Source of the DNA: a virus
Length of the DNA: 58,095 bases
Virus record (IMG/VR): IMGVR_UViG_3300037454_000132
Span: 1 to 58,095 of that record
Direction: 5' to 3' (one strand)
In this document: one piece after another, positions 12,811 to 57,070 of the stretch
Layout of the letters: every line of letters starts with the position of its first letter
How positions within the stretch are numbered: the stretch's first letter is position 1
Program-made: the position numbers and the translations under genes
Notes under the pieces: generated by a model
Databases searched by the model: none
What the model saw: only the letters and a program-made list of their open reading frames with translations
Told to the model about the DNA's origin: nothing

Positions 12811-13113
12811 ATGCTGGAACGGGAGATCGAAAGCAAGTTGCGGGAGCCGATAAAGGCGCTGGGCGGCTTGTGTTTGAAGTTTGAGACACCCGGTTATACC
12901 GGCGTCCCGGATCGGATCATCCTTTTACCCGGTGGCGTGATCCGGTTTGTCGAGACGAAGCAGCCGGGGAAGAAAGAGCGCGCCCGTCAACGTCTTGTGC
13001 ATGGATTGTTGCGGGAGCTGGGCTTTACCGTCTACAGCACGGTTGACAGCGTGGAGAAGATCGGCGCGATCATTGCGGAATGCAGGGAGGCAGTCAATGG
13101 CAAAGGTGTATAA
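12811..13113 (+). CDS. VRR-NUC domain nuclease
   Basis: GVPDRIILLPGGVIRFVETKQPGKK (D...ExK). The ORF track start at 12805 is TTG; ATG is at 12811. Confidence 0.8.
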   Translation: MLEREIESKLREPIKALGGLCLKFETPGYTGVPDRIILLPGGVIRFVETKQPGKKERARQRLVHGLLRELGFTVYSTVDSVEKIGAIIAECREAVNGKGV

Positions 13114-14482
13114 CCCCTATCCGTATCAGCAATACGCGGAGCGGGAGATCATCGAAAAACCGAACATCGGGCTTTTCCTTGACATGGGCTTAGGGAAAAC
13201 CGTTATCACCCTGACCGCCCTACAGGAAATGAAGTTTGACCGCTGGTGCGTCAACAAGACCTTGATTATCGCCCCGAAAAAGGTTGCGGAAGATACGTGG
13301 CAGACGGAGGCGCAGAAGTGGCAGCATCTACAGGGCTTGCGGATCGTCGGTGTGCTGGGGACAGCTACACAGAGAGAACACGCGCTTGACACCCCCGCCG
13401 ATATTTACGTTATCAACCGGGAAAATACGCAATGGCTGGTAGAGCATTACGGGCGGGACTGGCCGTTTGATACCGTGGTACTGGACGAAAGCAGTTCTTT
13501 CAAGAATCATCAGGCAAAGCGTTTCCGGGCCTTGCGTACCGTGCGCCCCCGGATCAACCGTCTTATCGAGCTGACCGGGACGCCCAACCCCCACGGGCTT
13601 ATGGACTTGTGGTCACAGGTCTTTCTACTGGACGGCGGAAAGCGGCTGGGGCGAACAATCAGCGTTTACCGGGATATGTATTTCAACCCGGACAAGCGCA
13701 ACCGGACTACGATATTTTCGTATGCCCCGAAAGAGGGCGCGGAACAGGAAATCCACCGGCTCATATCGGATATTTGTATCAGCATGAAAGCGTCTGACTA
13801 TCTGGATTTGCCGGAGCTGGTCTATGAGGATATTCCGGTTGTGCTGGACGACAAGGCTGCGAAAGCATACCGGCGCATGGAGCGCGACGCGGTTTTGCAG
13901 GTGGACGAAGATACCATAACGGCGACAAATGCCGCCGCGCTGTCTGGAAAGCTCCTACAGCTCTGTAACGGCGCTGTGTACGACGAAAACAGAGAGGTAG
14001 TACAAGTTCACGACTGCAAAATAGAGGCGTTCTTAGAGGCCGTGGAGGGCCTTAACGGGCAACACGCGATTGTGTGCTATTCGTTCATCCACGACAAGGA
14101 CAGGCTGCTACAGGCCCTTGAGAAAACCGGCTTGCGTGTGCGCGTGTACAAGGACACCCGCGACAAGGACGATTGGAACGCGGGAAACATCGACTTGCTT
14201 TTGATTCACCCGGCGTCTTGCGGTTACGGCCTGAATCTGCAAGAGGGAGGGCATCACATCATCTGGTTTGGCCTGACGTGGAATCTTGAAGAATACCAAC
14301 AGGCGAACAAGCGTCTGCACCGGCAGGGGCAGGATCACCCCGTTATCGTGCATCATCTGGTAGTCAAGGGCGGACGCGACGAAGATGTGATAAAGAGCCT
14401 TGAGGGAAAGGACAACGTACAAGAGGCCCTTTTGCAGTCTTTGAAAGTGAGAATCAAAGGGATCAAGGGAGGCGTGGCATGA
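13097..14482 (+). CDS. SNF2/DEAD-like helicase
   Basis: Motif I: DMGLGKT. Motif II: VVLDESSSFKN. Motif VI: QANKRLHRQGQ. AGGGAGG lies before ATG13097. Confidence 0.85.
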   Translation: MAKVYNPYPYQQYAEREIIEKPNIGLFLDMGLGKTVITLTALQEMKFDRWCVNKTLIIAPKKVAEDTWQTEAQKWQHLQGLRIVGVLGTATQREHALDTPADIYVINRENTQWLVEHYGRDWPFDTVVLDESSSFKNHQAKRFRALRTVRPRINRLIELTGTPNPHGLMDLWSQVFLLDGGKRLGRTISVYRDMYFNPDKRNRTTIFSYAPKEGAEQEIHRLISDICISMKASDYLDLPELVYEDIPVVLDDKAAKAYRRMERDAVLQVDEDTITATNAAALSGKLLQLCNGAVYDENREVVQVHDCKIEAFLEAVEGLNGQHAIVCYSFIHDKDRLLQALEKTGLRVRVYKDTRDKDDWNAGNIDLLLIHPASCGYGLNLQEGGHHIIWFGLTWNLEEYQQANKRLHRQGQDHPVIVHHLVVKGGRDEDVIKSLEGKDNVQEALLQSLKVRIKGIKGGVA

Positions 14483-14908: not shown

Positions 14909-15388
14909 ATGACCCTGAAAGAATTATCGCAGCTCTATTGGCTGAATCGTGAAATCGAGGCGGATCAGAGGCGGCTTGACGAGCTGGAACGCCTGAGAGG
15001 ATCACCGTCAAGCCCCCAACTAACCGGAATGCCCCACGCGCCCAACCGGAACGACAGCAAGGTTGAACGGCTGGCGGCGGAGATCGTTGACCTACAGGCG
15101 ATCATAGCCGCCCGACAGATACAGTGCATCCACGAGCGCGCGCGGCTGGAAAGGTGGATCAGTGATATTCCCGACAGCTTGACGCGGCAGGTGTTTACGT
15201 TGCGCTTTGTGGACGGCCTACAGTGGCCGCAGGTGGCCGTTTTTATCGGGGAGGGTACTACCCCTGACCGGGCAAAGAAAATCTGCTACAGGTACATAGA
15301 CAGGCAGGACGCGCGGACTGAGAGGCAGCTACGAGAGGCGGAGAAAGCAAGCCGGGAGTATGAACAGGGTTTGAGGTCGAGGCCGTGA
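14909..15388 (+). CDS. Sigma-70 region-4-like phage transcriptional regulator (DUF1492/RinA/ArpU-like late activator)
   Basis: LSQLYWLNREIE...LTGMP...DSLTRQVFTLRFVDGLQWPQVA resembles DUF1492-type regulators. It lies upstream of the packaging genes. Confidence 0.65.
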   Translation: MTLKELSQLYWLNREIEADQRRLDELERLRGSPSSPQLTGMPHAPNRNDSKVERLAAEIVDLQAIIAARQIQCIHERARLERWISDIPDSLTRQVFTLRFVDGLQWPQVAVFIGEGTTPDRAKKICYRYIDRQDARTERQLREAEKASREYEQGLRSRP

Positions 15389-15715: not shown

Positions 15716-16345
15716 ATGTACAAGCAGCAGCGCAACTATGAAAACCTGAATAAATACATCTTTGACGGCGTAGGCAAGTACGGCATCCCGGAGATCAAGC
15801 CGGAACAGTTCACGGTTGATAACTGGATCAGCTTCAACTTTGCGAAAAGCTGTGACGAGCCGGAGAAACACGGCATCCACTTTTTCATTGACGACTATCA
15901 GTTTATCCGGCTGTGGACAAACCCGGACGCCTACCTTGCCATGCTGGGGCGCTTTCAGGCGGTGTGTACGCCTGACTTTTCCACGTATACGGACTTTCCT
16001 ATGGCGATCCAGCTTTACAATCACTACCGCAAGCACTGGCTGGGCGCGTATTGGCAGCAGAACGGCGTCAAGGTCATTCCGACAATCTCATGGAGCGACG
16101 AAAGCTCCTTTGATTGGTGCTTTGATGGGGAGCCGGTAGGCGGTATGGTGGCCGTCAGCAGCGTCGGAACACAGCAGAACAAGAGAGCTACACGGCTTTT
16201 TGAGCTGGGCTATCAGGAAATGATGGACAGGCTCAAGCCGTCCGCTGTTATCATGTACGGCAATATCCCGGAGAGCTGCACCGGAAACGTGATCCCCGTT
16301 CGGGCGTTCACTACGAAATGGCGCGAATCAGACGCCGAAGATTGA
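15716..16345 (+). CDS. DUF4417 domain protein
   Basis: HGIHFFIDDYQFIRLW...TPDFSTYTDFP...NHYRKHWLGAYWQ matches DUF4417 as I recall it. GGAGG lies upstream. Confidence 0.65.
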   Translation: MYKQQRNYENLNKYIFDGVGKYGIPEIKPEQFTVDNWISFNFAKSCDEPEKHGIHFFIDDYQFIRLWTNPDAYLAMLGRFQAVCTPDFSTYTDFPMAIQLYNHYRKHWLGAYWQQNGVKVIPTISWSDESSFDWCFDGEPVGGMVAVSSVGTQQNKRATRLFELGYQEMMDRLKPSAVIMYGNIPESCTGNVIPVRAFTTKWRESDAED

Positions 16346-16388
16346 CAAGTCAAAGTATATTGACTTTATCGAAAGAGAGTGCTATAAT
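16342..16388 (+). promoter_or_regulatory. Operator palindrome plus promoter-like hexamers abutting the ART start codon
   Basis: AGTCAA-N6-TTGACT at 16348-16365. TTGACT-17 nt-TATAAT ends at 16388, and the ATG is at 16389. Confidence 0.45.
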
Positions 16389-17066
16389 ATGGGCGGCAGA
16401 GGTTCAAGCAGCGGCGGCGGATCAAGCCGCTCATTCCATACGATCCATCAAGCAAATGACTTTTTCGGCGTAGGCCGCGCGGACGGTATGTTTCCTGACT
16501 GGGAACGCGCCGTCCCGGACGACGAAAAGCAGTCCGCTATCCTGTACACGAAGCAAGCCTATATTCCGATGAACAAGCTCTTGCGGGAGGGCGAGGACGG
16601 CTATAAGAAATGGCTTGAGACGCATTCCGACAGCTATTTCCACGGTGACGCGGCTTTGATCCGTGAACACGCGGCCCGGATTGAAAGGGCTATGGACAAA
16701 TTCGACCTGAAAGAAAGCATCACCGTCTGGCGCGGCGGCAGCAGCCGTCTTGTGGGCGGCGCAACGACTGTGGAGGAATTGAAATCCTTGGTAGGCTCCA
16801 TCGTGCATGACAACGGCGTTATGAGTACCGCCGTCACCCGTGGCGGAATGTGGGACAAGAGCGGCGGAAAGAACATCGGCTATGAAATCGAAGTCCCGAA
16901 AGGCCGGGGACGCGGCGTGTTCATCGACCCCGTTTCCGCGCATCACGGCGAACAGGAGTTCATGGTACGTCCCGGAACGAAATTCAAGATCACCGGCGCG
17001 TACACGGACACCCACGGCGACGTGATTTGCAAGCTCAAGGCAATCTACCCGAAGAAACGCAAGTGA
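16389..17066 (+). CDS. ADP-ribosyltransferase (C3/Vip2-like R-S-E exotoxin fold)
   Basis: YTKQAYIPMNKLLREG, VWRG (Arg), MSTAV (STS-like), GEQEFMV (ExE). Confidence 0.8.
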   Translation: MGGRGSSSGGGSSRSFHTIHQANDFFGVGRADGMFPDWERAVPDDEKQSAILYTKQAYIPMNKLLREGEDGYKKWLETHSDSYFHGDAALIREHAARIERAMDKFDLKESITVWRGGSSRLVGGATTVEELKSLVGSIVHDNGVMSTAVTRGGMWDKSGGKNIGYEIEVPKGRGRGVFIDPVSAHHGEQEFMVRPGTKFKITGAYTDTHGDVICKLKAIYPKKRK

Positions 17067-17081
17067 TAGGAGGCAAGCACA

Positions 17082-17243
17082 ATGGCAGAGAAGAAGAACA
17101 TCCGCAAAGACCGCTTTACCGCGCAGGAGAGCGATTTTGTCTTTGACAAGCTCGTTGTCAACGGCAAAGAGGTAAAGCAGGGGCAGAAGCCCCCGAAAAA
17201 GCCCACCGCCCCGAAAAAGACCGGGAACGGCGGCAAAAAGTAA
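17082..17243 (+). CDS. Lys-rich microprotein (53 aa)
   Basis: TAGGAGG lies 8 nt before the ATG. C-terminal tail: KPPKKPTAPKKTGNGGKK. Below the ORF-track size cutoff. Confidence 0.5.
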   Translation: MAEKKNIRKDRFTAQESDFVFDKLVVNGKEVKQGQKPPKKPTAPKKTGNGGKK

Positions 17244-17258
17244 GGGAGGCCCTACGCT

Positions 17259-17888
17259 ATGGGCGGACGCGGCTCTATCTCAAAATTCAATAACGGGAAC
17301 AGCGGCAACACGCCCCGCCCACAGACCCTTGACGACTACTTAGGGCAGAAAGGCGATCCGAAAAGCCTTGATACCGCTATGACGACGGCAAATCCCCACT
17401 GGCTGGAATCCGCGCAGAAAAAGGACGGGCTGTATACTCACAACTGTCAACGCTGTATCTGGGCGGTAGAGCTTATGCGGCGCGGCTATGACGTGGAAGC
17501 CCTGCCCCGGACAGCGGATAACACCTATGCCCTGCTTGACCCGGACAAACCGCACAGCTTTGTCAACGTGGGCGATCCCCCGTTGCAGTTCAGCGCGGCA
17601 ATCGGCAACATCTGGTACAAGGCCAAAGCAACCGACGTGAAGAACGAAATCCTGAGACACCCGGAGGGATCACGCGGCGCGCTGGTTATGCACGGCCTGA
17701 AAAAAGGCCATGTGTGCAACTGGGAGATCGTCAAGGGCAAGGTGGTTATCTATGACGGGCAGGTAGGCCAAAAGCATACCTTGACCGACCTGATGAAAAA
17801 GGGCTTTGTGTCGTTCAAGGTGGCCCGTATGGATAACGTCGGCATCACCGACCTTGCGAAAGACTTTGTGAAAAGGAGGCAGTCATAA
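17259..17888 (+). CDS. Papain-fold (Tox-PL1/glutamine-deamidase-like) effector domain protein
   Basis: YTHNCQRCIWAVEL (Cys), KKGHVCNWEIV (His), VIYDGQ (Asp). N-terminus is MGGRGS. GGGAGG lies upstream. Confidence 0.55.
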   Translation: MGGRGSISKFNNGNSGNTPRPQTLDDYLGQKGDPKSLDTAMTTANPHWLESAQKKDGLYTHNCQRCIWAVELMRRGYDVEALPRTADNTYALLDPDKPHSFVNVGDPPLQFSAAIGNIWYKAKATDVKNEILRHPEGSRGALVMHGLKKGHVCNWEIVKGKVVIYDGQVGQKHTLTDLMKKGFVSFKVARMDNVGITDLAKDFVKRRQS

Positions 17889-18043
17889 TGGCACAGGCAA
17901 AGGGCAAGAAGCCGAGCCGGGAGGAAGCGCAGCGGTTGACTGAGGAAGCTATGAAAAAGCAGCTCTATGTTGACCCCATCGACCCGATCCCCGGAAAGAA
18001 AGCCCCGGCAAAGAAGAAAGCCCCCGCAAAGGGCAAGAAGTAA
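17888..18043 (+). CDS. Lys-rich microprotein (51 aa)
   Basis: ATG overlaps the previous stop (TAATG). C-terminal tail: GKKAPAKKKAPAKGKK. Analogous to 17082..17243. Confidence 0.5.
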   Translation: MAQAKGKKPSREEAQRLTEEAMKKQLYVDPIDPIPGKKAPAKKKAPAKGKK

Positions 18044-18060
18044 AACCGCATATCCTGAAA

Positions 18061-18095
18061 CCCCGCAACGGCGAAAAGCTGTTGCGGGGATTTTT
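18061..18095 (+). terminator. Rho-independent terminator
   Basis: CCCCGCAAC-11 nt loop-GTTGCGGGG followed by ATTTTT. Confidence 0.7.
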
Positions 18096-18125
18096 ATACC
18101 ATTCTGACAGAGGGGAGGAAACACA

Positions 18126-18908
18126 ATGCAGATCGAAGCATTCAAAAGAGAGTTTCGGGACGTGGTAGCCGTTCCGTTTGGTGCGGATCATGCGTTATTC
18201 CGTAGCCCCCTGCGCCTTGTCAATCTGGAAACCGGCAAGGAAAAGCGGCTCAAGTCCCTTGAGGACGCGCTTGACCTTGACGTGGAGGGCAAGACCATAG
18301 CTGAGTACATTGAGGAAATGGATCATATCAGCTTTGAGCGCGAGGGCGGCAGAGGCGGCAGCTCCGGCTTGCGCAACGGAGAGAACGAACAGTCTTTCAA
18401 GTTCGGCCACGCGCCCCACGGCAGGGGCAGCGGTCATGACGTGAAAGACCTGCCCGCGAAACTCAATGTGCGCATCCCGATCAACGGCAAGTCCCCGGAG
18501 GCCGCGCTTGCGGAGTTCCGCAAGCTACACGCGCTGAGTAACACCGAGTACGGCGTTACGGTTGACGAACAGGGCTTTATCACTCAGTACGTCAAGGGCG
18601 GTGCTACGAGCGTCGGCATCTGGGGCAAAAAGGGCGAAATGGTTTACCACAATCACCCGTCCGGGGGCGCGTTCTCCGACAGCGACTTGCTCAGTACGTC
18701 CATGAGCGCGGAAAAGGGCATCGTCGCAAGCGGAAAGAACGGCGACTACATCTTTGTGAAGAACGGCGGTCATTTCAAGGCTCAGGCGTTTATGAAAGCC
18801 GTCAGGAATGCAAAGATGAAAGGCACAAGCTACGACGACGCCGTTGACAAGTGGCTGAAAGCGAATCAGAAAAAGTACGGGTACACCTACGTTTTCAAGA
18901 AAGCGTGA
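18126..18908 (+). CDS. JAB/MPN-like metallopeptidase domain protein
   Basis: YHNHPSGGAFSDSD (HxH...S..D, RadC/JAMM-like). An internal EGGRGGSSG linker follows a 75-aa N-terminal domain. Confidence 0.55.
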   Translation: MQIEAFKREFRDVVAVPFGADHALFRSPLRLVNLETGKEKRLKSLEDALDLDVEGKTIAEYIEEMDHISFEREGGRGGSSGLRNGENEQSFKFGHAPHGRGSGHDVKDLPAKLNVRIPINGKSPEAALAEFRKLHALSNTEYGVTVDEQGFITQYVKGGATSVGIWGKKGEMVYHNHPSGGAFSDSDLLSTSMSAEKGIVASGKNGDYIFVKNGGHFKAQAFMKAVRNAKMKGTSYDDAVDKWLKANQKKYGYTYVFKKA

Positions 18909-18943: not shown

Positions 18944-19429
18944 ATGGCAAGACGCGGAGTGCTGACATATAACACCCCCGAAGAAATGCAGGAAAAGATC
19001 GACGCTTATTTTGAAAGCTGTGAGGGGCATATCCTGACCGACGACAATGGAAAGCCGATTCTTGATAAGTTCGGCCATCCGAACATCATAGACGCGAAGC
19101 CCCCCACCATCACCGGCCTTGCCCTTGCCATCGGTTTTAATTCCCGGCAAACCCTTTTGAATTATCAGGCAAAGGCCGCTTTCCGCGACGTGCTTATTCG
19201 TGCGAAGTCCCGCGTTGAAATGTATACGGAGGAACGTCTTTTCGATAAAGACGGCGCGGCTGGCGCGCGTTTCTCCCTACAGTTCAATTTCAAGGGCTGG
19301 CGTGAGGATAAGGACGACGAAAACAAGGCACCGGTTGTCAACATCATCTGTGACATTCCGAAAGCCGCCCCGACTGAGGCGGCAGCGCCGGAAAGCACCG
19401 GCGAGGCGGTGAGCGATAATGCCGACTGA
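18944..19429 (+). CDS. terS: Terminase small subunit
   Basis: TPEEMQEKIDAYFESC...PPTITGLALAIGFNSRQTLLNY is typical of TerS. It lies immediately upstream of and overlaps TerL. Confidence 0.75.
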   Translation: MARRGVLTYNTPEEMQEKIDAYFESCEGHILTDDNGKPILDKFGHPNIIDAKPPTITGLALAIGFNSRQTLLNYQAKAAFRDVLIRAKSRVEMYTEERLFDKDGAAGARFSLQFNFKGWREDKDDENKAPVVNIICDIPKAAPTEAAAPESTGEAVSDNAD

Positions 19430-20666
19430 CGGCGTAAGACTGTCTGACTGTATCGCTCCCGCCTTTTATCCGGTCTACTGGGACATTCAAAACGGGGATC
19501 ACACGTTCTATGACCTGTTCGGCGGACGTGGATCAACAAAATCGTCCTTTATCAGTATCATGCTGATTCTGGGGATCGTGCAGGACAGGGACGCAAACGC
19601 AATCGTTTTCCGCAAGGTAGGAAACACGCTGGGAACGTCCGTCTATGAACAGGTCTTGTGGGCGATCAACGCCCTTGAAATGCAGGATCAGTGGAAATGC
19701 ACGACAAGCCCGTACAAATGTACGTATAAGCGTACAGGGCAGGTCATTCTTTTCCGTGGTTTGGACTACGCGAAAAAGCTGAAATCCATCAAGGTATCAA
19801 AGGGCTATCTCAAGTACCTCTGGTTTGAGGAATTGGACGAGTTCGCCGGGGAAGAAGAAATACGATCCGTGCAACAGTCCGTCCTACGCGGCGGCGAGAA
19901 GCACGTTGTATTCAAGTCCTTTAACCCCCCGATCAGCAAGGCAAACTGGGCGAATCAGTACGTTATGAAGCCGCAGCGCAGGGCGCTACGGCACAAATCC
20001 TGTTATACCGAAGTTCCCCCGGAGTGGTTAGGGCAACAGTTCCTTGACGACGCGGAGGACTTGAAAGAGACAAACCCCCGCGCGTATCAGCATGAATATC
20101 TGGGCGAGGCCGTAGGCACGGGCGGCGAGGTCTTTGAAAACCTTGAAATCCGGGAGATCACCGACGAGGAAATCAGTCATTTCGACAACATCTTTATGGG
20201 GATTGACTGGGGCTGGTATCCTGACCCGTTCCACTGGGGAAAGATGCACTACGACAGCACCCGGAAAACCCTGTACATCTACGACGAGTACCGCGCGAAC
20301 AAGCAATCCAACGCTGAGACGTGGAACAACCTTGTCATGCTCAAAGGCGTCACGGAATCCGACCTTATCACGGCGGACAGCGCGGAGCCGAAAAGCGTGA
20401 GCGACTACCGGGACTATGGCTCCCTTTGCCGGGGCGCGATCAAAGGCCCCGACAGTGTGCGGTACGGCATGAAGTGGCTGCAATCGCTCAAGAAGATCGT
20501 CATTGACCCCGGCAGGTGTCCGGCCACGGCGAAAGAGTTTTCCGAGTATGAGTACGAGCGAACGCCTGACGATGAAATAATCAGCGGTTATCCCGACCTG
20601 AACAATCATTCCATCGACTGTGTGCGGTACGCTATGGAACGCATCTGGAAGCGGAAAGGACAGTAA
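19419..20666 (+). CDS. terL: Terminase large subunit (PBSX-like)
   Basis: Walker A: FGGRGSTKSS. Walker B: YLWFEELDE. C-terminal nuclease region: DWGWYPDP...HSIDCVRY. Confidence 0.9.
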   Translation: MPTDGVRLSDCIAPAFYPVYWDIQNGDHTFYDLFGGRGSTKSSFISIMLILGIVQDRDANAIVFRKVGNTLGTSVYEQVLWAINALEMQDQWKCTTSPYKCTYKRTGQVILFRGLDYAKKLKSIKVSKGYLKYLWFEELDEFAGEEEIRSVQQSVLRGGEKHVVFKSFNPPISKANWANQYVMKPQRRALRHKSCYTEVPPEWLGQQFLDDAEDLKETNPRAYQHEYLGEAVGTGGEVFENLEIREITDEEISHFDNIFMGIDWGWYPDPFHWGKMHYDSTRKTLYIYDEYRANKQSNAETWNNLVMLKGVTESDLITADSAEPKSVSDYRDYGSLCRGAIKGPDSVRYGMKWLQSLKKIVIDPGRCPATAKEFSEYEYERTPDDEIISGYPDLNNHSIDCVRYAMERIWKRKGQ

Positions 20667-21735: not shown

Positions 21736-21806
21736 TTTTTTCGCAGAGGGTGTCAGTAATGACGCCCTCTTTTCATATCCGCCAAAAGGTGGTGAGAGAA
21801 AACCCC

Positions 21807-23300
21807 ATGTTCACAAAGCTACTCAATTTTATCCGACAGGTGGTGAGAAAGATTTTACCGTACAAAGATATTGAATCGGTTGAGCGCATAGAAACACCGC
21901 TGTCAAACGAAATGGCACAGGCGCTTGACGATTGGTACAATATGTATCTGAACAAGGCGGAGTGGTTAAAGCCTGATACGGTGAAGTCCCTTAACCTCCC
22001 CGCCTTTATCTGTGCGGAGCTGTCCCGGCAGATCGTTCTTGAAATGAAGTGGAACATCACCGGCAAGAACGTAGACGGCAGCACTCAGAACGAGGACGGC
22101 GAGGCGATTATGAATCCCCGCGCCGAATTTCTCAAGGCTGAGTTTGAGCGGTGCATTACCGTTCTCCGGCAAAAGCTGGAACAGGGCTGCGCGGCTGGCG
22201 GCATGACGATCAAGCCCTATCCCAAAGGCGAACACATCTACTTTGACTGGACAATGGATTGGAGCCTGTACCCGATTGCCTTTGACGACGACGGGAATCT
22301 GAGCGACGTAATTTTCCGGGACAGCTACACGCAGGGCAAGGTATTCTATACCCGCCTTGAGCGTCATACCGTGGACGGCAATAACGTTAAGATCAGTCAG
22401 AGGGCTTTCAAATCCACCATGCGGGACAATATCGGAACGGAAATCAGTCTTTCCGAAGTCCCGGCGTGGGCAGAGCTTGAGCCGGAGGCCACCGTACAGA
22501 ACACGGGCGGTCAGATGTTCGGCTGGTTCAAGGTTGCCGCTGCGAACAGCATTGACGTTGACAGTCCTATGGGCGCGTCCGTCTACTGCAAGGCCCGGAA
22601 CACCATCAAGGAAGCCGACATACAGTATTCCCGCATTCTCTGGGAGTATGAGGCGTCCGAAATGGCGATTGACGTTGATCCTACCGTCCTGCGTCCGAAA
22701 AAGGGCGCTGACGGCAAGATGGAAATGCCGAAGCTGAATGAACGGCTTTTCCGTGGCGTCGATATGGGGAAAGACGACAACTACAACGTCTTTGCCCCCG
22801 CGATCCGGGACAGCTCCCTTATGAATGGCCTGAATCAGCTCCTTATGCGGATCGAAGATCAGTGCGGCCTTGCGCGTGGTACGCTTTCCGACGCCAACAG
22901 TGAGGCGCGGACGGCTACGGAGCTGCGGATCGTCAAACAGCGGTCTTATGCGACGGTTGCGGACAATCAGACGGCCCTTGAAAACTGTCTGAAAGACGTG
23001 ATCCGGGCTATGGACAAGTACGCGACAATGTATCATCTTGCCCCGGAGGGCGAATACGACGTTTCCTTTGAGTGGGACGACAGCATTATTACTGACACCG
23101 AACAGCAGATGAATGAAAGAATGCTCTTGCTGACCAACGGCGTTATCAGTAAAGCTGAGTTCCGCGAGTGGTACTTTGGTGAGACAAAAGCACAGGCGAA
23201 CGCCGCGATTGAAAACATTGCCGCCGAAAAAGCCGCCGACATGGAACAGCTTTTGCCGAAGCTCCCCACGAATCAGACCGGCGAGGACGACGAGGAATAG
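21807..23300 (+). CDS. Portal protein (SPP1 gp6-like)
   Basis: About 497 aa, positioned between terminase and MuF. Start is MFTKLLNFIRQ with an AAGGTGGTGAG RBS. The C-terminus is acidic. Confidence 0.85.
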   Translation: MFTKLLNFIRQVVRKILPYKDIESVERIETPLSNEMAQALDDWYNMYLNKAEWLKPDTVKSLNLPAFICAELSRQIVLEMKWNITGKNVDGSTQNEDGEAIMNPRAEFLKAEFERCITVLRQKLEQGCAAGGMTIKPYPKGEHIYFDWTMDWSLYPIAFDDDGNLSDVIFRDSYTQGKVFYTRLERHTVDGNNVKISQRAFKSTMRDNIGTEISLSEVPAWAELEPEATVQNTGGQMFGWFKVAAANSIDVDSPMGASVYCKARNTIKEADIQYSRILWEYEASEMAIDVDPTVLRPKKGADGKMEMPKLNERLFRGVDMGKDDNYNVFAPAIRDSSLMNGLNQLLMRIEDQCGLARGTLSDANSEARTATELRIVKQRSYATVADNQTALENCLKDVIRAMDKYATMYHLAPEGEYDVSFEWDDSIITDTEQQMNERMLLLTNGVISKAEFREWYFGETKAQANAAIENIAAEKAADMEQLLPKLPTNQTGEDDEE

Positions 23301-23311
23301 GGAGGCCGTAA

Positions 23312-24463
23312 ATGCTGACTGAGAAAGAGCTTGAGGCGGCGATCAAGCGGATCACTGACCGGCTGGACGAGGTAAACCGGCTGTTCGTCAAAAAGATTGC
23401 CGTGCAAATCCTGAAAATCGGAGAGCTGAATCAGTCCAGCATCAACCGTCTTATCGTCATGGCCGATATGGGCGCGGACGTTGCGGACATAAACCGGCAG
23501 CTCCAAGAGGCTACCGCTCTGAATATCCGTGACCTGTTCAAAATCTACCAAGCGGCGCTGACGGAAACCTACACGGACAAACGATTCAAAGTGTTCCTGC
23601 AACAGACCCCGCTTTCCACTGAACAGCGGGACAGGATCACGCAGTTTGCGCAGAATGTCAGCGTACAGACCGCGCAGACCATGTTGAATATCTCAAACAC
23701 CACCGCCGTTCAGGATCAGTACAAAGAGGCCGTTGACAAGGCGATCACCGCCGTTTCCGTGGGGCTGTCCGATTATCAGTCCGCCACCCGGAGCGTGATA
23801 CGGGATATAGGCTACAACGGCTTGCAGGTCTACTATGAAAGCGGCTACCACCGGCGACTTGATACCGCCGTTCGGCAAAACATCATCGACGGCGTGAATC
23901 AGATCAATCAAAACGCCTCCCTTGAAATGGGGGAAGCTCTGGGGTTTGACGCGATTGAGCTTTCCGCACACGCGCACAGTGCCCCGGATCACGAGCCGGT
24001 ACAGGGCCGCGTCTTTCTCAAAGCGGAATTTGAGAAGATGCAGAACGGCGAGGACTTTTCCGACGTGGACGGCCACCGCTACGAGGGATTCCCCCGGCCT
24101 ATCGGTGAATGGAATTGTCAGCATATCGCAATGAGCTTTTCAACAGCTCATTCCGTGCGTCGGTATACGGAGGATCAGCTTTCCCAGTGGGCGCGGGATA
24201 ACGCCAAAGGCTGCACGTTCAACGGAAAGCATATGACGACCTATCAGGCGCAACAGTATATGCGGCGGCTGGAAACCCGTGTCCGGCGCGAAAAGGACAG
24301 CGCAAACGCGGCGCGGGATGTGAACGACGACGAGCTGCGGCGATCCTGTCAGGTCAGGATCAACAAGCTCTCAAAACAGTATTATGCTCTTGCCAAAGCT
24401 GCGGGACTGAAACCGCATGGAAACCGGCTGTCTGTGGAGGGATTCAAGGCAGTCAAGGTTTAA
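23312..24463 (+). CDS. Minor head protein, MuF/SPP1 gp7 family (no C-terminal toxin domain)
   Basis: ELSAHAHSAPDHEPVQGRVF...PIGEWNCQH is typical of the gp7 domain. It follows the portal gene. Confidence 0.85.
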   Translation: MLTEKELEAAIKRITDRLDEVNRLFVKKIAVQILKIGELNQSSINRLIVMADMGADVADINRQLQEATALNIRDLFKIYQAALTETYTDKRFKVFLQQTPLSTEQRDRITQFAQNVSVQTAQTMLNISNTTAVQDQYKEAVDKAITAVSVGLSDYQSATRSVIRDIGYNGLQVYYESGYHRRLDTAVRQNIIDGVNQINQNASLEMGEALGFDAIELSAHAHSAPDHEPVQGRVFLKAEFEKMQNGEDFSDVDGHRYEGFPRPIGEWNCQHIAMSFSTAHSVRRYTEDQLSQWARDNAKGCTFNGKHMTTYQAQQYMRRLETRVRREKDSANAARDVNDDELRRSCQVRINKLSKQYYALAKAAGLKPHGNRLSVEGFKAVKV

Positions 24464-40745: not shown

Positions 40746-41843
40746 ATGTCTATGAATCCCTTTGTTGACCGGTTTTCGGTCAACGGCGGCGCAAGCAACG
40801 CCGTTATCGGCGCAAGCGGCGATAGGTACTACGAGGGCGTAGACCTGACGCTGAAATTCGCAACAGAAATTGCCGCCTCTCCCTACAGCGGCAACCCGTG
40901 GGCGTGGATCAAGGCCCGTATTCAGGCTGCGGATTTCACCGGCATCCACGTGAACGACTACATCCCGTTCGTGACCACGGACAACAAGACCCTGAAAGCC
41001 TGTGTGGGCGGCATCAACACCTACAAGGGCTACGGCGACACGGCGGTAGGCAATCACATTGATTTCATCTGCCGTGAGCTGTGGCCTACCAGAAAGCCCG
41101 TCAACCCCGTCAACTACAACAACGGCCTGATCCCCGTCGAAACCCTGACCGGCGACGGTACGACCACTACCTTTGTTCTGGCAAAGGAAATGGACGGTAT
41201 CGCCTCCGTCACGCAGGGCGGCGAGGGCTTGACTGGCTACACCTACGACGCCTCCACGTTCACGCTGACCTTTGCGGAGGCTCCCGCCGCTGGCACGATC
41301 ACCGTCACCGGCACCGGCACGGAACATCCGTGGCTGGCCTCTGACCTCTATCACTGGCTGAACAGCCTTGCCGGTCAGGTGCCGAACGGTACGGGCCTCA
41401 ATCCCGCCGTGAAGCACGTGGATTACACGCAGGGCGGCGTGTACTACTACCTCCCGGCCAACCTGAAAAACGTGATCGTGGAAAAGAGGGCGTACCTGCC
41501 GAAGCGGTACAGCGCGTCCGGTCTGCTTTCCGACGACAACGCCGGAGCGTGGGCCGATATTGGCAAGCTGTGGCTCCCGTCCGAATACGAGGTCTACGGT
41601 GGCCCCGTCTGGGGCGGCAAGAACGGCTATGCGCTGGCCGGTAACTGCGTGCAGTACCCGATTTTCGCCCACAACATGAACCGCGTCAAGAACAGGAGCG
41701 GTAGCCGGGAGCGGTGGTGGGTACTCTCTGTCTATTCAGGCAATACCACGGATTGGTGCCATGTCAACAACAGCGGCGGTGCCGGCAACACCGGCGCGTC
41801 CTACACCAGCCGTGCCGCGCCCGTCTGCTTCCGTATCTCATAA
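40746..41843 (+). CDS. DGR target protein 1 (C-type-lectin-like/DUF1566-like variable C-terminus)
   Basis: Its 3' end carries VR1. The C-terminus is WWVLSVYSGNTTDWCHVNNSGGAGNTGASYTSRAAPVCFRIS. Confidence 0.85.
   Translation: MSMNPFVDRFSVNGGASNAVIGASGDRYYEGVDLTLKFATEIAASPYSGNPWAWIKARIQAADFTGIHVNDYIPFVTTDNKTLKACVGGINTYKGYGDTAVGNHIDFICRELWPTRKPVNPVNYNNGLIPVETLTGDGTTTTFVLAKEMDGIASVTQGGEGLTGYTYDASTFTLTFAEAPAAGTITVTGTGTEHPWLASDLYHWLNSLAGQVPNGTGLNPAVKHVDYTQGGVYYYLPANLKNVIVEKRAYLPKRYSASGLLSDDNAGAWADIGKLWLPSEYEVYGGPVWGGKNGYALAGNCVQYPIFAHNMNRVKNRSGSRERWWVLSVYSGNTTDWCHVNNSGGAGNTGASYTSRAAPVCFRIS
41715..41835 (+). repeat. DGR variable region VR1
   Basis: 121 nt aligned to TR 42414-42534 with 15 mismatches. 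Fourteen are at TR adenines and one is at TR T42511. Confidence 0.9.
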
Positions 41844-41858
41844 TCTGTTTTGGCAATC

Positions 41859-41877
41859 CGCGCCCCTTGTGGGCGCG
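41859..41877 (+). promoter_or_regulatory. GC hairpin downstream of VR1 (DGR target-recognition hairpin candidate)
   Basis: CGCGCCC-cttgt-GGGCGCG, about 24 nt after the VR end. The same sequence follows VR2. Confidence 0.7.
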
Positions 41878-41894
41878 CACAGGAGAAATGGATT

Positions 41895-42362
41895 ATGAGT
41901 AACGTGCTGAAACGATTTCAGGGGATCAGCGAAATGGAGTTTTACCATACCGCTGACGACCTGCGCACGGAGCTTTCCAGTTTGTTGTACAGGGATAAGG
42001 TTGTCCCGAAAAAGTATCGGTACAACGTCACGTATGCGGCGGTAGACGCCGTAAACCGCATGATGCGGCTGATGCACCGGGCCAACCGAAAATCCCTGTA
42101 CGACCCGGAGGAAGTAAAAGAACGCCGTGACCTACAGCAAGAGTGTATCGAATGCCTTGACGAGATTTGCGAGATCATCCAGTACGCGATTCGCAATGTG
42201 TGGTGGCAAAAGCTACACGCGGTAAACAAGGAAACGGGAGAGCCGACACAGGAACGGTTGCTTTTGGAAAAGCACCTGACCGATATAGGCGATCTGATTG
42301 ACCGCGAAGATCGTTTACTCAAAGGCTGGAAACGCTCTACAAGACTTCTCAAAAACAAATAA
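41895..42362 (+). CDS. avd: DGR accessory variability determinant (Avd-like)
   Basis: 155-aa helical, basic protein located between target and TR. AGGAG lies before ATG41895. Confidence 0.75.
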   Translation: MSNVLKRFQGISEMEFYHTADDLRTELSSLLYRDKVVPKKYRYNVTYAAVDAVNRMMRLMHRANRKSLYDPEEVKERRDLQQECIECLDEICEIIQYAIRNVWWQKLHAVNKETGEPTQERLLLEKHLTDIGDLIDREDRLLKGWKRSTRLLKNK

Positions 42363-42413
42363 GCAAATCGGTTATTTTCTGCTGCATAAAATCCTGAGAG
42401 TAGCCGGGATAAT

Positions 42414-42534
42414 TGGTGGGTACTCTCTGTCTATTCAGGCAATACCACGAATTGGTGCAATGTCAACAACAACGGCAATGCCAACAACAACAACGCGTCC
42501 AACACCAACATTGCCGCGCCCGTCTGATTCCGTA
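42414..42534 (+). repeat. DGR template repeat (TR)
   Basis: Non-coding copy of the VRs, rich in AAC triplets (caacaacaacggcaatgccaacaacaacaac). No downstream GC hairpin. Confidence 0.9.
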
Positions 42535-42758
42535 AAACACCGCTGATTCCGAAACAGCATATCCCCTATGGCCCGTATAGAGTAAGCGCCCCGCGCGCTG
42601 AAATTAGTGCCTACCCCAAAGCAAATGTTTACGGAAGGAGAAAATAACCGTCCCGAATCGAAAAGGGTAAATACGCACCGTGACGCGGCTGGCCGGACGC
42701 TTCTTGCATGGCCGGGGATGGCGACTGAGCTGACGGAATCCAGCAAGTACCCGGTTAC

Positions 42759-44087
42759 ATGACCATTGCCGCTATGGAGATCACAACGCGCCCCTACAAT
42801 AACACTCTGCGCGGTGCTTTCCCCCAGTTGAAAGAGGCAAACGAATTGAATAGTCAGGAACGACACGAAGCGCGCTACCAGCGCCGGAAAGCAGCACGGG
42901 CCGCGAAACGTCGGGAGAAGATCGGAAAGTATGACGACTTTGACCGGCTATCCTCCGTCCCCGCGATCCTCCATGCGAACTGGGAAACGCGGCAGGGCGT
43001 GATGTTCAAGGCAAACGTAGCGCGATACAACATGAATTATTACAAGAACGCTACACGGCAGTCAAAGGATTTGCGCGAGGGAAAAGACGTGCGGCGGTCA
43101 TTCTACGTTTTCGATATTCGGGAGCGTGGGAAGCTGCGGCACATTCACAGTCTGCATTACTCCGAACGTGTGATCCGGCGCTCCGCCTGTACCAACGCCT
43201 TTGTTCCTGTTCTCTCAAACGGTCTGATTTACGACAACGGGGCAAGCCTGAAAGGAAAAGGCGTGTCTTTCGCTGCGAATCGGTGTGAGGCACACTTGCA
43301 TAAGTATTTCCGGGAAACCGGGAGCAATGAGGGTTATATCCTGATAATCGACTTCAAAGGCTACTTTGACCATATTCTGCATGAGCCTTTGAAAGAACTC
43401 ATTGACCGGGCGTTTGAGGACAAGCGGATTGTCAACTTGAGCTACAGCTTTATCGACGCGACCAACCGGGACAAGCCGCCCGAACAACACGGGCAGGGCT
43501 TGTACATCGGGCCGGAGGACAGTCAGATTTACGCCGTCGCCTACCCAAATCGGATTGACCACAAGATCAAAGACGAGCTGCGGCAAAAGTATTACAACCG
43601 CTACATGGACGATTCCTACATCATTCACCGCGATAAGGACGTTCTACAGGCTATTCTTGACGTTCTGCTGAAAGAGTACGCGAAATACGGTATTATCCCT
43701 AACCCGAAGAAAACGCAGATCGTGAAGCTCTCAAAGGGCTTTACGTACCTTAAAACCCGCTATTACCTGACCGAAACCGGACGGGTAATCAAAAAGGCGG
43801 ATCATAGCTGCATCGTGCGCGAAAGGCGGAAGCTGAAAAGGCTACACGGGCTGTACGTGGCAGGTGAGGTTACACTTGACCAAATCGTACAGTCCTATAT
43901 GTCGTGGCGCGGCTCAATCCTGAAACGGGATGCCTACCGCTCTGTGCAAAGCATGGACGCCCTGTTCTTTGGACTTTACGGCGTCAAGCCGTGGAGAAAT
44001 CTTAAAAAGAAACGAGGTAAGTACAATGGACGAAACCCGCGATCAGATCATCGGGGAGATTACCGCCCTGAAATCCCTGCTGCGTGA
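42759..44087 (+). CDS. DGR reverse transcriptase
   Basis: LYIGPEDSQIYA (DGR-type IGxxxSQ) and NRYMDDSYI (YxDD). Confidence 0.9.
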   Translation: MTIAAMEITTRPYNNTLRGAFPQLKEANELNSQERHEARYQRRKAARAAKRREKIGKYDDFDRLSSVPAILHANWETRQGVMFKANVARYNMNYYKNATRQSKDLREGKDVRRSFYVFDIRERGKLRHIHSLHYSERVIRRSACTNAFVPVLSNGLIYDNGASLKGKGVSFAANRCEAHLHKYFRETGSNEGYILIIDFKGYFDHILHEPLKELIDRAFEDKRIVNLSYSFIDATNRDKPPEQHGQGLYIGPEDSQIYAVAYPNRIDHKIKDELRQKYYNRYMDDSYIIHRDKDVLQAILDVLLKEYAKYGIIPNPKKTQIVKLSKGFTYLKTRYYLTETGRVIKKADHSCIVRERRKLKRLHGLYVAGEVTLDQIVQSYMSWRGSILKRDAYRSVQSMDALFFGLYGVKPWRNLKKKRGKYNGRNPRSDHRGDYRPEIPAA

Positions 44088-47210: not shown

Positions 47211-47269
47211 GGGCAAAAACGCGGTGTGTATGCGTCTTTTGGCTGGTCGAAAAATTTTCCAAAAAATTT

Positions 47270-47334
47270 AGTCAAAAGTTATTGACAAGTCTATGAACGT
47301 GTGCTATAATTCAGACAGTCAAAAAACTTTGACT
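47270..47334 (+). promoter_or_regulatory. Early promoter with two flanking operators
   Basis: AGTCAA-N6-TTGACA (47270-47287; TTGACA is the -35), 17 nt, TATAAT at 47305-47310, then AGTCAA-N6-TTGACT at 47317-47334. Confidence 0.75.
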
Positions 47335-47376
47335 AAAACGACAACCGAAACGCGACACGCGAAAGGAGATAACACG

Positions 47377-49004: not shown

Positions 49005-49038
49005 TTTTGACCGGTCAATCGTGGCCGGTCAAAAATTT
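49005..49038. terminator. Bidirectional-looking terminator hairpin
   Basis: TTTTGACCGG-10 nt-CCGGTCAAAA followed by ATTT. Confidence 0.55.
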
Positions 49039-49050
49039 CTTACAAAATAT

Positions 49051-49115
49051 AGTCAAAAGGTGTTGACAAGTCTATGTTCGTTTGCTATACTGTGCATAGT
49101 CAAAAATCATTGACT
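49051..49115 (+). promoter_or_regulatory. Early promoter with two flanking operators (paralog of 47270-47334)
   Basis: AGTCAA-N6-TTGACA (49051-49068), 17 nt, TATACT at 49086-49091, then AGTCAA-N6-TTGACT at 49098-49115. Confidence 0.75.
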
Positions 49116-49155
49116 GAACACGATAAGCGACAAGCGAAAAACGGAGGTACGCGAA

Positions 49156-51918: not shown

Positions 51919-52098
51919 ATGGAAAACGTATTCGGGGGCGCGGCTGTGCTGTGCATCTATCTTGGGCCGCTGCTGTTGGCACTGGCCGTAGGCGGGTTTA
52001 TTTCGGACGTACTTTTGCCGCGCTGCCCGTTCCTGCTCCGTCTGCTGGAACGGCTGACCGGCGTAGATTTAGGAGGTAATGACTATGAGGACGATTGA
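51919..52098 (+). CDS. Small membrane protein (59 aa)
   Basis: GGAGG lies 9 nt before ATG51919 (MENVFGGAAVLCIYLGPLLLALAVGGFI). Preferred over the Arg-rich ORF 51879..52079. Confidence 0.45.
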   Translation: MENVFGGAAVLCIYLGPLLLALAVGGFISDVLLPRCPFLLRLLERLTGVDLGGNDYEDD

Positions 52099-53134
52099 TA
52101 GGTTTCTGGGCTGTCTGGTGGGTGGCGCGCTGGGGGACGCTCTGGGCTACCCCGTCGAGTTTATGAGCATGAATGACATATGCCGCATCTACGGCCACCG
52201 GGGGATCAGGGAGCCGCTTGTAAACCGGCTGGACAAGACCGCGCATATCTCCGACGACACGCAAATGACCTTGTTCACGGCGAATGGGCTTTTGCTGGCG
52301 CACAACGATGGGCTTGATCTTACTGACGCCCTATGGATCGCGTATCAGCGGTGGTATTACACTCAGACGATGCGGTGTGAGAACATCGAGTATACGATCC
52401 GCCGCGCCGGTGATCCACTTCCGTACATTCTGGATCAACACGCACTTCACGCTTGCCGCGCTCCCGGTACTACCTGTCTGACGGAGCTTGGCAACGGACA
52501 CCGGGGCGCTCCCGGCAAGAATCTGAATGACCGTAAGGGCTGTGGCGGCGTCATGCGTGTTGCGCCCTGTGGTCTGTTCTTTGCGGAGGAACCGGACGTT
52601 GCGTGTCTGGCAGCGGTCAAGGCCGCAGCTCTGACGCACGGCCACCCGACAGGCTACACGGCGGCGGGGGCGTTTGCGTACATGATCGCCCGGATTGTGA
52701 AAGACGGGATTTCCATTCGGGCGGCGGCGGAGGCGGCTATGCAGCTTGTCCCGGCTATCTCCGACAACACGGAAACGGCTGAGGCAATCGAAATGGCCCT
52801 GTTCTATGCGGAACAGGACACCTACCCGCAGAAAGCTATAAACGTGCTGGGCGAGGGCTGGACGGCTGAGGAAGCCCTTGCAATCGGCCTGTACTGCGCT
52901 CTGAGAGGTAAGACCACAAAGGAAGCCCTGATACTTGCCGTCAATCACAAGGGCGACAGCGACAGCACAGGCGCGATTTGCGGCAATATCGTAGGCGCGT
53001 ACTACGGCTATGACGCGCTTCCGGCTGACTGGATCAAGGCGCTTGAGCTTGAGGGTTTTATCCGCGTGACGGCCTTTGAGCTTTACAACAACAGCGACAG
53101 CAAAAGAAAGGAGTACAAGGATGCTGAAAAGTGA
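52085..53134 (+). CDS. ADP-ribosylglycohydrolase (ARH/DraG family)
   Basis: GGALGDALGYPVEF, HISDDTQMT, GCGGVMRVAP, HGHPTGY, GDSDSTGAICGNIVGAYYG. An alternative ATG is at 52079. Confidence 0.85.
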   Translation: MRTIDRFLGCLVGGALGDALGYPVEFMSMNDICRIYGHRGIREPLVNRLDKTAHISDDTQMTLFTANGLLLAHNDGLDLTDALWIAYQRWYYTQTMRCENIEYTIRRAGDPLPYILDQHALHACRAPGTTCLTELGNGHRGAPGKNLNDRKGCGGVMRVAPCGLFFAEEPDVACLAAVKAAALTHGHPTGYTAAGAFAYMIARIVKDGISIRAAAEAAMQLVPAISDNTETAEAIEMALFYAEQDTYPQKAINVLGEGWTAEEALAIGLYCALRGKTTKEALILAVNHKGDSDSTGAICGNIVGAYYGYDALPADWIKALELEGFIRVTAFELYNNSDSKRKEYKDAEK

Positions 53135-55398: not shown

Positions 55399-55429
55399 TG
55401 CCCCGGAGGATTTACCTCCGAGGCATTTT
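55395..55429. terminator. Bidirectional terminator hairpin between convergent genes
   Basis: AAAATGCC-CCGGAGG-attta-CCTCCG-AGGCATTTT. It overlaps the last integrase codons. Confidence 0.65.
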
Positions 55430-57019: not shown

Positions 57020-57070
57020 TGTTCGCCCCCTCAAAGAATAGGTAGATCACTTTGCCGCGTCGGATCGCTC

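Follow-up and report, generated by a model that had tools for sequence, protein, structure and literature searches.

A portable N-terminal GGRG tag on candidate head-packaged effector enzymes encoded upstream of the terminase genes in a gut Clostridia prophage

Two kinds of phage effector are already described: free-standing ADP-ribosyltransferases (ARTs) that are encoded near terminase genes and proposed to be packaged in the head (PMC9503650, where Alt and head packaging are cited), and Tox-PL1, ART and nuclease toxins that are fused to the minor capsid protein MuF and predicted to be delivered with it (PMC3482391, PMC5576092; ART and Tox-PL1 are both listed there as MuF partners). The locus analyzed here belongs to IMG/VR virus record IMGVR_UViG_3300037454_000132 (positions 1 to 58,095, i.e. 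the whole stretch of DNA under analysis, called the window below), a temperate siphovirus-type prophage whose host is a member of the gut Clostridia. Three of its plus-strand ORFs, A, B and C, which were found at the coordinates given by an initial annotation of this DNA, precede the terminase genes and encode a predicted ART, a predicted papain-fold enzyme and a predicted JAB/MPN-like protein, respectively. They are separate genes, not covalently fused to a MuF domain, and carry a short element, the GGRG tag (consensus GGRG(A/S)SSG), with which ORFs A and B begin (MGGRGS). In our best explanation, which we consider evenly poised between right and wrong, A, B and C are interchangeable effectors that would be packaged in the head and injected, with the tag taking the place of a fusion to MuF.

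ORF A (16389-17066, plus strand; 225 aa) encodes a free-standing protein that begins with the tag (MGGRGSSSG, nt 16389-16415), ends with a basic C-terminus (...YPKKRK) and is a predicted R-S-E ART of the VIP2/C2/C3/Alt-like group. The initial annotation had read the R-S-E signature from its motifs, and this reading holds: residues 36-206 match Pfam ADPrib_exo_Tox above the curated threshold (E 3.8e-17, 62.7 bits for a cut-off of 23.4), and the catalytic residues R115 (VWRGG), S146 (MSTAV), E188 and E190 (GEQEF) are invariant in 17 sequences, T147 next to S146 being invariant or nearly so. All 16 homologues found are free-standing (207-252 aa).

ORF B (17259-17888, plus strand; 209 aa) also starts with the tag (MGGRGSISK, nt 17259-17285) and ends in ...DFVKRRQS. 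Its initial assignment as a Cys/His/Asp papain-fold protein was borne out by a match of residues 62-170 to Pfam Gln_amidase/Tox-PL1 above the curated cut-off (E 4.5e-8, 34.6 bits for a cut-off of 24.1) and by conservation of the NC, H and D catalytic residues that form the Tox-PL1 signature (Zhang et al. 2012, PMC3482391): among 21 homologues, N62-C63 and H151 are invariant and D166 is kept in at least 90%. The protein is thus classed as a Tox-PL1/Gln_amidase papain-fold enzyme, predicted to be a deamidase or a peptidase. PF15644 is carried by 37 of 38 homologues, and 31 of the 38 start with MGGRG, which is kept in this family down to about 30% overall identity.

ORF C (18126-18908, plus strand; 260 aa) is a member of the phrog_5057 family (E 1.8e-32), of which we found 351 clusters (90% identity) and, at 50% identity, 800 cluster representatives; its closest genomic relative comes from an Oscillospiraceae metagenome-assembled genome (63% identity). 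It is composed of an N-domain (aa 1-73), an internal tag (GGRGGSSG, residues 74-81, nt 18345-18368), a Gly-rich linker and a putative RadC-like JAB/MPN module ending in WLKANQKKYGYTY. The JAB/MPN assignment of the initial annotation is supported by the motif and by the predicted fold, but not by sequence profiles. Indeed, E141, H175, H177, S184 and D187 (HNHPSGGAFSDSD) are invariant in 47 homologues and occur in the correct order (E...HxH...S..D), with an HxH-to-Ser spacing of 6 that varies among homologues; the spacing is 7 in the canonical JAMM motif. By contrast, ORF C has no match in Pfam, NCBIfam or the PDB sequences, the RadC profile matched one of the 47 family members (E 0.13), the Prok-JAB and Tox-JAB profiles did not match ORF C, and a profile search of the family against PDB sequences returned no JAB protein. 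When the AF2 model (pLDDT 91.9, pTM 0.89, with pLDDT 67-71 around the tag) was compared with the PDB by Foldseek, the top five matches were all RadC 2qlc, albeit weak (E 0.06-0.23, probability 0.57-0.89, TM 0.45). The matches in BFVD were an MPN-domain protein (E 4.7e-3), RadC or RadC-like JAB proteins (E 7e-3 to 1e-2, probability 0.92-1.0) and, over their C-terminal part, 'minor capsid proteins' of 450-630 aa (E 3e-6 to 6e-3). On the basis of this model, a divergent RadC-like JAB fold is in our judgment quite probable, membership of a curated JAB family having failed the profile test.

We considered and rejected a VanY/LAS-type peptidase: the VanY matches were weak (17 of 47 members, best E 0.0057) and a fold search with the ORF C model returned no peptidase of this type. 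We tentatively put these matches down to the short motif WL..N..KYGY, since this motif alone gives weak PDB matches to ABC-transporter binding proteins. Ten proteins of the family, of about 185 aa, begin directly with MGGRG, which leads us to describe ORF C as an optional N-domain followed by the tag and the JAB module. Note that several homologues of ORFs A and C have Lys-rich C-terminal tails.

The tag is far more widespread than these three genes. In about 160 related loci, clustering places it at the head of at least 14 unrelated families encoded beside packaging genes, among them two ART families, Gln_amidase, a CdiA_C-type toxin domain, DUF6883 and phrog_9479, as well as several families without any database match. 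These loci (numbered L001 onwards) include 59 IMG/VR and 20 genome loci fetched through ORF C; their genes were called by a simple longest-ORF procedure, and the choice of loci leans towards the patterns by which they were fetched. IMG/VR contains at least 535 loci with the phrog_9479 family, of 130 aa; of the 80 that were kept, 76 are tagged. Comparison of homologues shows stronger conservation of the N-terminal MGGRG than of the remaining protein. At the level of DNA, 76 distinct tag sites make use of all four Gly codons, of both AGR and CGN Arg codons, and of both AGY and TCN Ser codons; since synonymous positions vary so freely, selection acts at the protein level, and a DNA-level signal, such as a Shine-Dalgarno-like GGAGG after the start codon, is ruled out. 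The Gly/Arg/Ser element that had initially been noticed in the three ORFs is a genuine tag, which heads dozens of unrelated proteins in related loci.

The Walker A region of the large terminase subunit, TerL (19419-20666), contains the same pentapeptide (FGGRGSTKSS). A relationship with the tag was rejected as coincidence, tagged genes being also found with terminases devoid of the motif (L004-L007 and others). A GGRG-containing minus-strand ORF near 190-774 was discarded as noise, as it is antisense to a plus-strand ORF.

In relatives of ORF C, of the 130-aa family and of other tagged families, the tag is preceded by a leader of the type cut by Prp, the host protease that processes ribosomal protein L27. 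Such leaders (a slash marks the predicted cut) read MKINIQLF/GGRGASSG in L043, MKYILDSQLF/GGRGASY in L059 and L060 (in an ORF C homologue without the N-domain), MEKLNLQLF/GGRGAS in L070, MTKINIQLF/ in L087 and VVENLQFF/ in about 20 loci; homologue and representative searches yielded ten ORF C family proteins with a leader of this type (e.g. MIKLNIQLF/ and MVKIDLQFF/). The published Prp motif of L27 is MLxx(D/N)LQ(F/L)F'A (PMC9405229), and ribosome, capsid, scaffold and tail proteins make up the known substrates of Prp (PMC5744158). The window's own ORFs have no Prp-type leader, A and B starting with MGGRG and C with its 73-aa N-domain. Methionine aminopeptidase removes Met before Gly, and we infer that it does so in ORFs A and B, where Gly follows Met. 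As cutting of the leader and removal of Met give the same N-terminus, the selected feature appears to be a free N-terminal GGRG, i.e. the conserved element appears to be the mature N-terminus.

Tagged genes are also present in cultured or named phages, namely Roseburia phage Jekyll, Dorea phage DO134P1 and Streptococcus prophage Javan318, and ORF29 of S. pneumoniae phage MM1 is an ORF C homologue with an internal GGRG. In two cases, mis-called start codons have cut the tag off: gp23 of S. pyogenes phage A25 (L085, 3453-3863) is annotated from an internal Met while the ORF truly begins with MGGRGASSG, and the Javan318 homologue (L167, 2459-2869) figures in the public annotation as a 48-aa fragment only. 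Jekyll (L086, 3172-3444) encodes a 90-aa protein with a Prp-type leader (VVVNLQFF/GGRGGSSG) and without the JAB core, whose end (...AKKNGYKYLSL) resembles the C-terminal motif of the ORF C family; similar ORFs of 82-110 aa occur in L148 and L153.

We then turn to MuF, which is encoded in the window by a short MuF2/minor capsid protein 2 gene (23312-24463, plus strand). As the initial annotation had noted, this MuF carries no toxin: Phage_min_cap2 covers residues 2-358 of its 383 (E 2.7e-50) and there is no effector extension. The same annotation had pointed out that such domains are fused to MuF elsewhere, and this is what we observed. Residues 13-144 of a tagged CdiA_C-like protein (L026) align with residues 417-547 of the MuF2 of another locus (L047; E 1e-20), the MuF2 extension of L037 matches the JAB module of ORF C (hhalign E 2.7e-5, probability 74%), and that of L147 gives a weaker match to the 130-aa family. 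In addition to the minor capsid matches of ORF C in BFVD, PHROG searches hit C-terminal regions in 'head maturation protease/minor head protein' families, and gp35 of phiFL4A is a MuF-ART fusion. Among the 56 complete MuF2 homologues of the fetched loci, 43 are short and 13 long. The one expectation that failed was that MuF-toxin fusions would carry the same linker: GGRG is absent from the MuF-effector junction in all 13 long MuF2 proteins and in the phiFL4A fusion, and a shared linker was rejected on these grounds. That the same cargo occurs fused to MuF without GGRG is the strongest argument for the tag being a functional alternative to head-protein fusion. Tag and MuF fusion look like alternatives, and the tag probably replaces the fusion as the route into the virus particle, which agrees with published head-packaging proposals (PMC3482391, PMC5576092, PMC9503650).

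The position of the tagged genes was then considered. In the fetched loci, they always lie within the packaging/head module, usually between a DUF4417 gene and the gene of the small terminase subunit (TerS) and, in L141, L157 and L111, between portal and MuF2. The DUF4417 gene (15716-16345, plus strand, in the window; Pfam E 3.1e-59) is their constant upstream neighbour: in 111 of 126 loci (about 88%; 42/45, 57/68 and 12/13 by locus set, with median gaps of 120, 3 and 47 nt) it ends no more than 2.5 kb before the first tagged gene, and its stop often overlaps the start of the next tagged gene. DUF4417, a domain without assigned function (bioRxiv 10.1101/2025.10.10.680097), is often fused to ParB_N in relatives; a profile search against the PDB gave no match and a single-sequence model (pLDDT 33) no usable fold. 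We regard the DUF4417 protein as a candidate partner of the tag.

What is shown, namely the enzyme families with intact catalytic residues, the tag and its breadth, the Prp-type leaders, the alternation of tag and MuF fusion and the gene order, suggests the following scheme, in which packaging, ejection, targets, toxicity and a tag-binding partner are all what we infer. ORFs A, B and C would form a set of effector enzymes with a mature N-terminal GGRG(A/S)SSG and a flexible Gly/Ser linker, the tag being exposed in the window by removal of the initiator Met and in relatives by the host L27 protease Prp, which would cut the ...NLQ(F/L)F/GGRG leader. In place of a covalent link to MuF/minor capsid protein, the tag would steer these proteins, synthesized together with those for packaging and the head, into the procapsid; ejected with the DNA into the next cell, they would act there early, ORF A by Arg-type ADP-ribosylation, ORF B by glutamine deamidation or papain-type cleavage, and ORF C as a RadC-like metal hydrolase. 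An ADP-ribosylglycohydrolase encoded by the prophage (52079-53134, plus strand; Pfam ADP_ribosyl_GH E 2.9e-72), in an accessory region near a serine recombinase gene (55412-57034, minus strand), is a candidate antidote that may reverse the modification made by ORF A in producing or lysogenic cells. Indeed, in L045 and L074 (Bifidobacterium prophage) a tagged ART gene is directly followed by an ADP-ribosylglycohydrolase gene, a pairing that lends indirect support to an ART active in the bacterial cytoplasm and in need of reversal.

Several observations weigh against this scheme. We found no virion proteomics in the literature for Jekyll, A25/A1 or MM1. The 13 long MuF2 homologues, which belong to tagged phages, keep their own effector extension, so that the two formats are not exclusive. 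In the long form of ORF C, the tag stays internal without sign of cleavage; the exact GGRG is missing in 54 of 173 long forms, and this relaxation of the internal motif suggests that the N-domain may substitute for the tag. The small ORFs that follow A and B, called a' and b', are unlike typical immunity proteins, and the A-a'-B-b' block is bracketed by a promoter-like site and a hairpin, a moron-like layout.

This layout bears on another explanation, which we hold to be unlikely: A, B and C would be morons, or host-takeover, anti-defence or toxin-antitoxin-like enzymes, that act unpackaged in the cell expressing them, and the purpose of the tag would be stability, N-terminal modification or regulated turnover. 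A strong, near-consensus promoter-like site with an extended -10 (16360-16388; TTGACT-17-TG-TATAAT, 11 of 12 matches plus TG) lies directly 5' of the ART gene, as do its equivalents in L001 (3282-3310) and L064 (4357-4385), i.e. in three diverged relatives including the window. At the other end, a strong terminator-like hairpin (18061-18089, plus strand; 12-bp stem with 9 G-C pairs, then ATTTTTAT) stands 3' of b', before C; a long hairpin occupies the same place in L064 (5920-5966), and no terminator-like hairpin was detected there in L001. The block could thus be expressed outside the late operon. This explanation also agrees with the PHROG class of the ART family ('moron, auxiliary metabolic gene and host takeover'), with the location of the ADP-ribosylglycohydrolase gene in the accessory region, and with the small ORF that follows each enzyme gene. 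However, the -10 box abuts the ATG of ORF A, and likewise that of its counterpart in L064, so that this promoter could not express the tagged protein. Moreover, the same tag is found on unrelated proteins inside head modules, the portal-MuF2 interval included, leaders of the Prp type are known elsewhere from proteins of virion or ribosome assembly, and the domains alternate with MuF fusion.

The small ORFs themselves are a' (17082-17243, plus strand; 53 aa, with a Lys/Pro-rich tail), which is kept at the same position in L001-L003 (called there as a 47-aa gene) and L064 (43 aa), and b' (17888-18043, plus strand; 51 aa, with a Lys/Ala/Pro-rich tail), whose start overlaps the stop of ORF B and which is kept in L001-L003 (48 aa) and L064 (54 aa) in a layout resembling that of a'. 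Similar ORFs were seen in L066. Both are of low complexity and gave no family match. ORF a' is a possible immunity protein, chaperone or DNA-binding internal peptide; for the pair, DNA-binding internal peptides may be a better description than classical immunity proteins.

We also envisaged, as quite improbable, that ORF C or ORF B recognizes or processes the tag and would be a peptidase that matures or releases the other tagged proteins and itself. JAB enzymes cleave at Gly-Gly in other systems, ORF C is the most constant tagged gene beside variable ones, and its own tag sits in a lower-confidence loop between two domains. In addition, Tox-PL1, which also occurs fused to MuF, was proposed to be a releasing peptidase in some polymorphic toxins (PMC3482391). 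On the other hand, RadC-type JAB domains have been argued to be devoid of a ubiquitin-tail groove (PMC5512222), M/GGRG or a Prp leader leaves nothing substantial ahead of the motif to remove, and the residues before GGRG in the long forms of ORF C have no common cleavage motif. An ORF C-like gene is found within 4 kb in 7 of the 76 tagged 130-aa loci (an approximate count, as detection was by regular expression), and ORF B-like genes are rarer; ORF C is dispensable for the tag's occurrence, and its absence near most tagged 130-aa genes weakens the case for a tag-specific peptidase.

Finally, it is hardly credible that A, B and C are toxins directed against eukaryotic cells, or against neighbouring bacteria after lysis, with the N-terminal Gly (GxxxS) as an N-myristoylation-type or uptake signal: MGGRGS is compatible with the loose N-myristoylation pattern GxxxS/T, and pathogen ART and glutamine-deamidase toxins act on eukaryotic targets, but neither a signal peptide nor an export system is present, antibacterial or nucleic-acid enzymes (CdiA_C, JAB/RadC) and small domains of unknown kind account for many of the tagged cargo domains, the putative ADP-ribosylglycohydrolase antidote implies action in the bacterial cytoplasm, and the hosts are diverse commensals. 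Phage ARTs near terminase genes do include enterotoxin relatives (PMC9503650).

If head packaging by means of the tag is correct, phages have two delivery formats for interchangeable enzymes, a MuF fusion and a short portable tag, which would account for the 'hypothetical' genes so commonly grouped between DUF4417 and terminase in phages of the gut, of streptococci and of bifidobacteria. Our observations also link host Prp processing to phage effector maturation and point to DUF4417 as a functional partner. A broader proposal, which we put forward tentatively and think rather less than likely, is that siphophages of Firmicutes and Bifidobacterium use GGRG(A/S)SSG as a general signal for loading cargo into their heads. 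DUF4417, with the ParB-type NTP- and DNA-binding domain to which it is often fused, would load the cargo or tether it, the DNA and the portal being possible anchors. Were this so, a class of unannotated small phage genes would encode injected effectors, a 9-residue tag could direct any protein into these capsids, and the GGRG tag would be the viral counterpart of encapsulin targeting peptides; cargo loading of therapeutic phages is a possible practical use. Cultured phages with tagged genes exist (S. pyogenes A25, Roseburia phage Jekyll, Dorea DO134P1 and S. pneumoniae MM1). A literature search with the tag strings gave no relevant paper, and we found no earlier description of the tag, its Prp leaders, its breadth across families, its alternation with MuF fusion or its linkage to DUF4417.

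As for the surroundings of the tagged genes, the order in the window is SNF2 helicase (12947-14482), a late-regulator-like gene (14909-15388; phrog_36), DUF4417, A, a', B, b', C, TerS (18944-19429, plus strand; Pfam GP3_package E 3.8e-16), directly 3' of ORF C, and TerL (plus strand; Terminase_3 E 7.5e-38 and Terminase_3C), after which come a phrog_1233 gene, an SPP1-type portal gene (21750-23300, plus strand; Pfam SPP1_portal E 1e-10), the short MuF2 gene, and scaffold and capsid genes. The block from DUF4417 to TerS, small ORFs included, is kept in L001-L003 (contigs about 55% identical) and in L064. The DUF4417 neighbour, the conserved Lys-rich small ORFs, the Prp-type leaders and the ADP-ribosylglycohydrolase gene had escaped the initial annotation. 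A nucleotide search of phage records gave weak terminase and DUF4417 matches only, and no close relative was found.

Elsewhere in the window, we noted a diversity-generating retroelement with two targets (40746-44087 and 53739-54527). Its template repeat (135 nt, 42400-42534) lies upstream of the reverse transcriptase gene (42759-44087; Pfam RVT_1), and its variable copies (41701-41835 and 54379-54513), which differ from the template mostly at template adenines, sit at the 3' end of each of two DUF6273 genes. Past the lysin gene there is an 88-nt direct repeat (47250-47337 and 49031-49118, 78% identity) with promoter-like boxes TTGACA ... TGCTATAAT.

It remains to compare the tagged proteins with known systems. 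The internal proteins and Alt of phage T4 carry an N-terminal capsid-targeting sequence; this unrelated cargo, which includes an ART, is produced together with the head proteins and enters the host along with the DNA, after the phage prohead protease has cleaved the targeting signal off. Here too, a short N-terminal signal is common to unrelated proteins, the putative cargo (GGRG(A/S)xSG in at least 14 families). Unlike the T4 signal, GGRG appears to be the mature N-terminus itself, exposed by Met removal or by host Prp. Another parallel is offered by P1 Dar, which includes a ParB-like protein, DdrB (PMC5512222), and thereby recalls the ParB-DUF4417 genes that adjoin tagged genes. The present system differs from both T4 and P1 by its Gram-positive hosts, its siphovirus-type gene layout and the lack of sequence similarity.

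Encapsulin cargo-loading peptides, which are short, contain Gly and Ser, come with a flexible linker and are usually C-terminal, load unrelated enzymes into an HK97-fold shell. In both cases a short conserved peptide with a flexible linker marks unrelated enzymes; however, encapsulins are not viruses, and the GGRG tag, a candidate loading signal, is N-terminal.

Relatives of all three kinds of tagged protein have the ...NLQ(F/L)F/ leader in common with known Prp substrates, i.e. L27 and, in 80alpha, the capsid and scaffold proteins (PMC9405229, PMC5744158). By contrast, the residue after the cut is Gly (of GGRG), not Ala, the proteins are enzymes or small effectors, not shell proteins, and the window's A and B consist of M/GGRG without leader. 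ORF C resembles the RadC-like/Tox-JAB domains that polyvalent proteins and polymorphic toxins contain (PMC5512222, PMC3482391) by its E...HxH...S..D motif, by the matches, weak in the PDB, of its model to a deaminase-like JAB fold and by its phage effector contexts, MuF fusions included. It differs from them by the absence of a match to the Pfam RadC, Prok-JAB or Tox-JAB profiles, by a shorter HxH-to-Ser loop, and by a C-terminal WL..N.KKYGY helix/strand and an optional 73-aa N-domain.

Lastly, the MuF polymorphic toxins (PMC5576092, PMC3482391) have the same repertoire of ART, Tox-PL1, nuclease and JAB-like domains and the same setting, i.e. the packaging/head module of temperate gut/Firmicutes phages with small downstream ORFs, and capsid delivery is predicted in both cases. 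They differ in format: the effectors of the window are free-standing and encoded upstream of TerS instead of being C-terminal extensions of MuF, the MuF2 of the window is short, and the N-terminal GGRG, which none of the examined fusions has, takes in our reading the place of the MuF domain.

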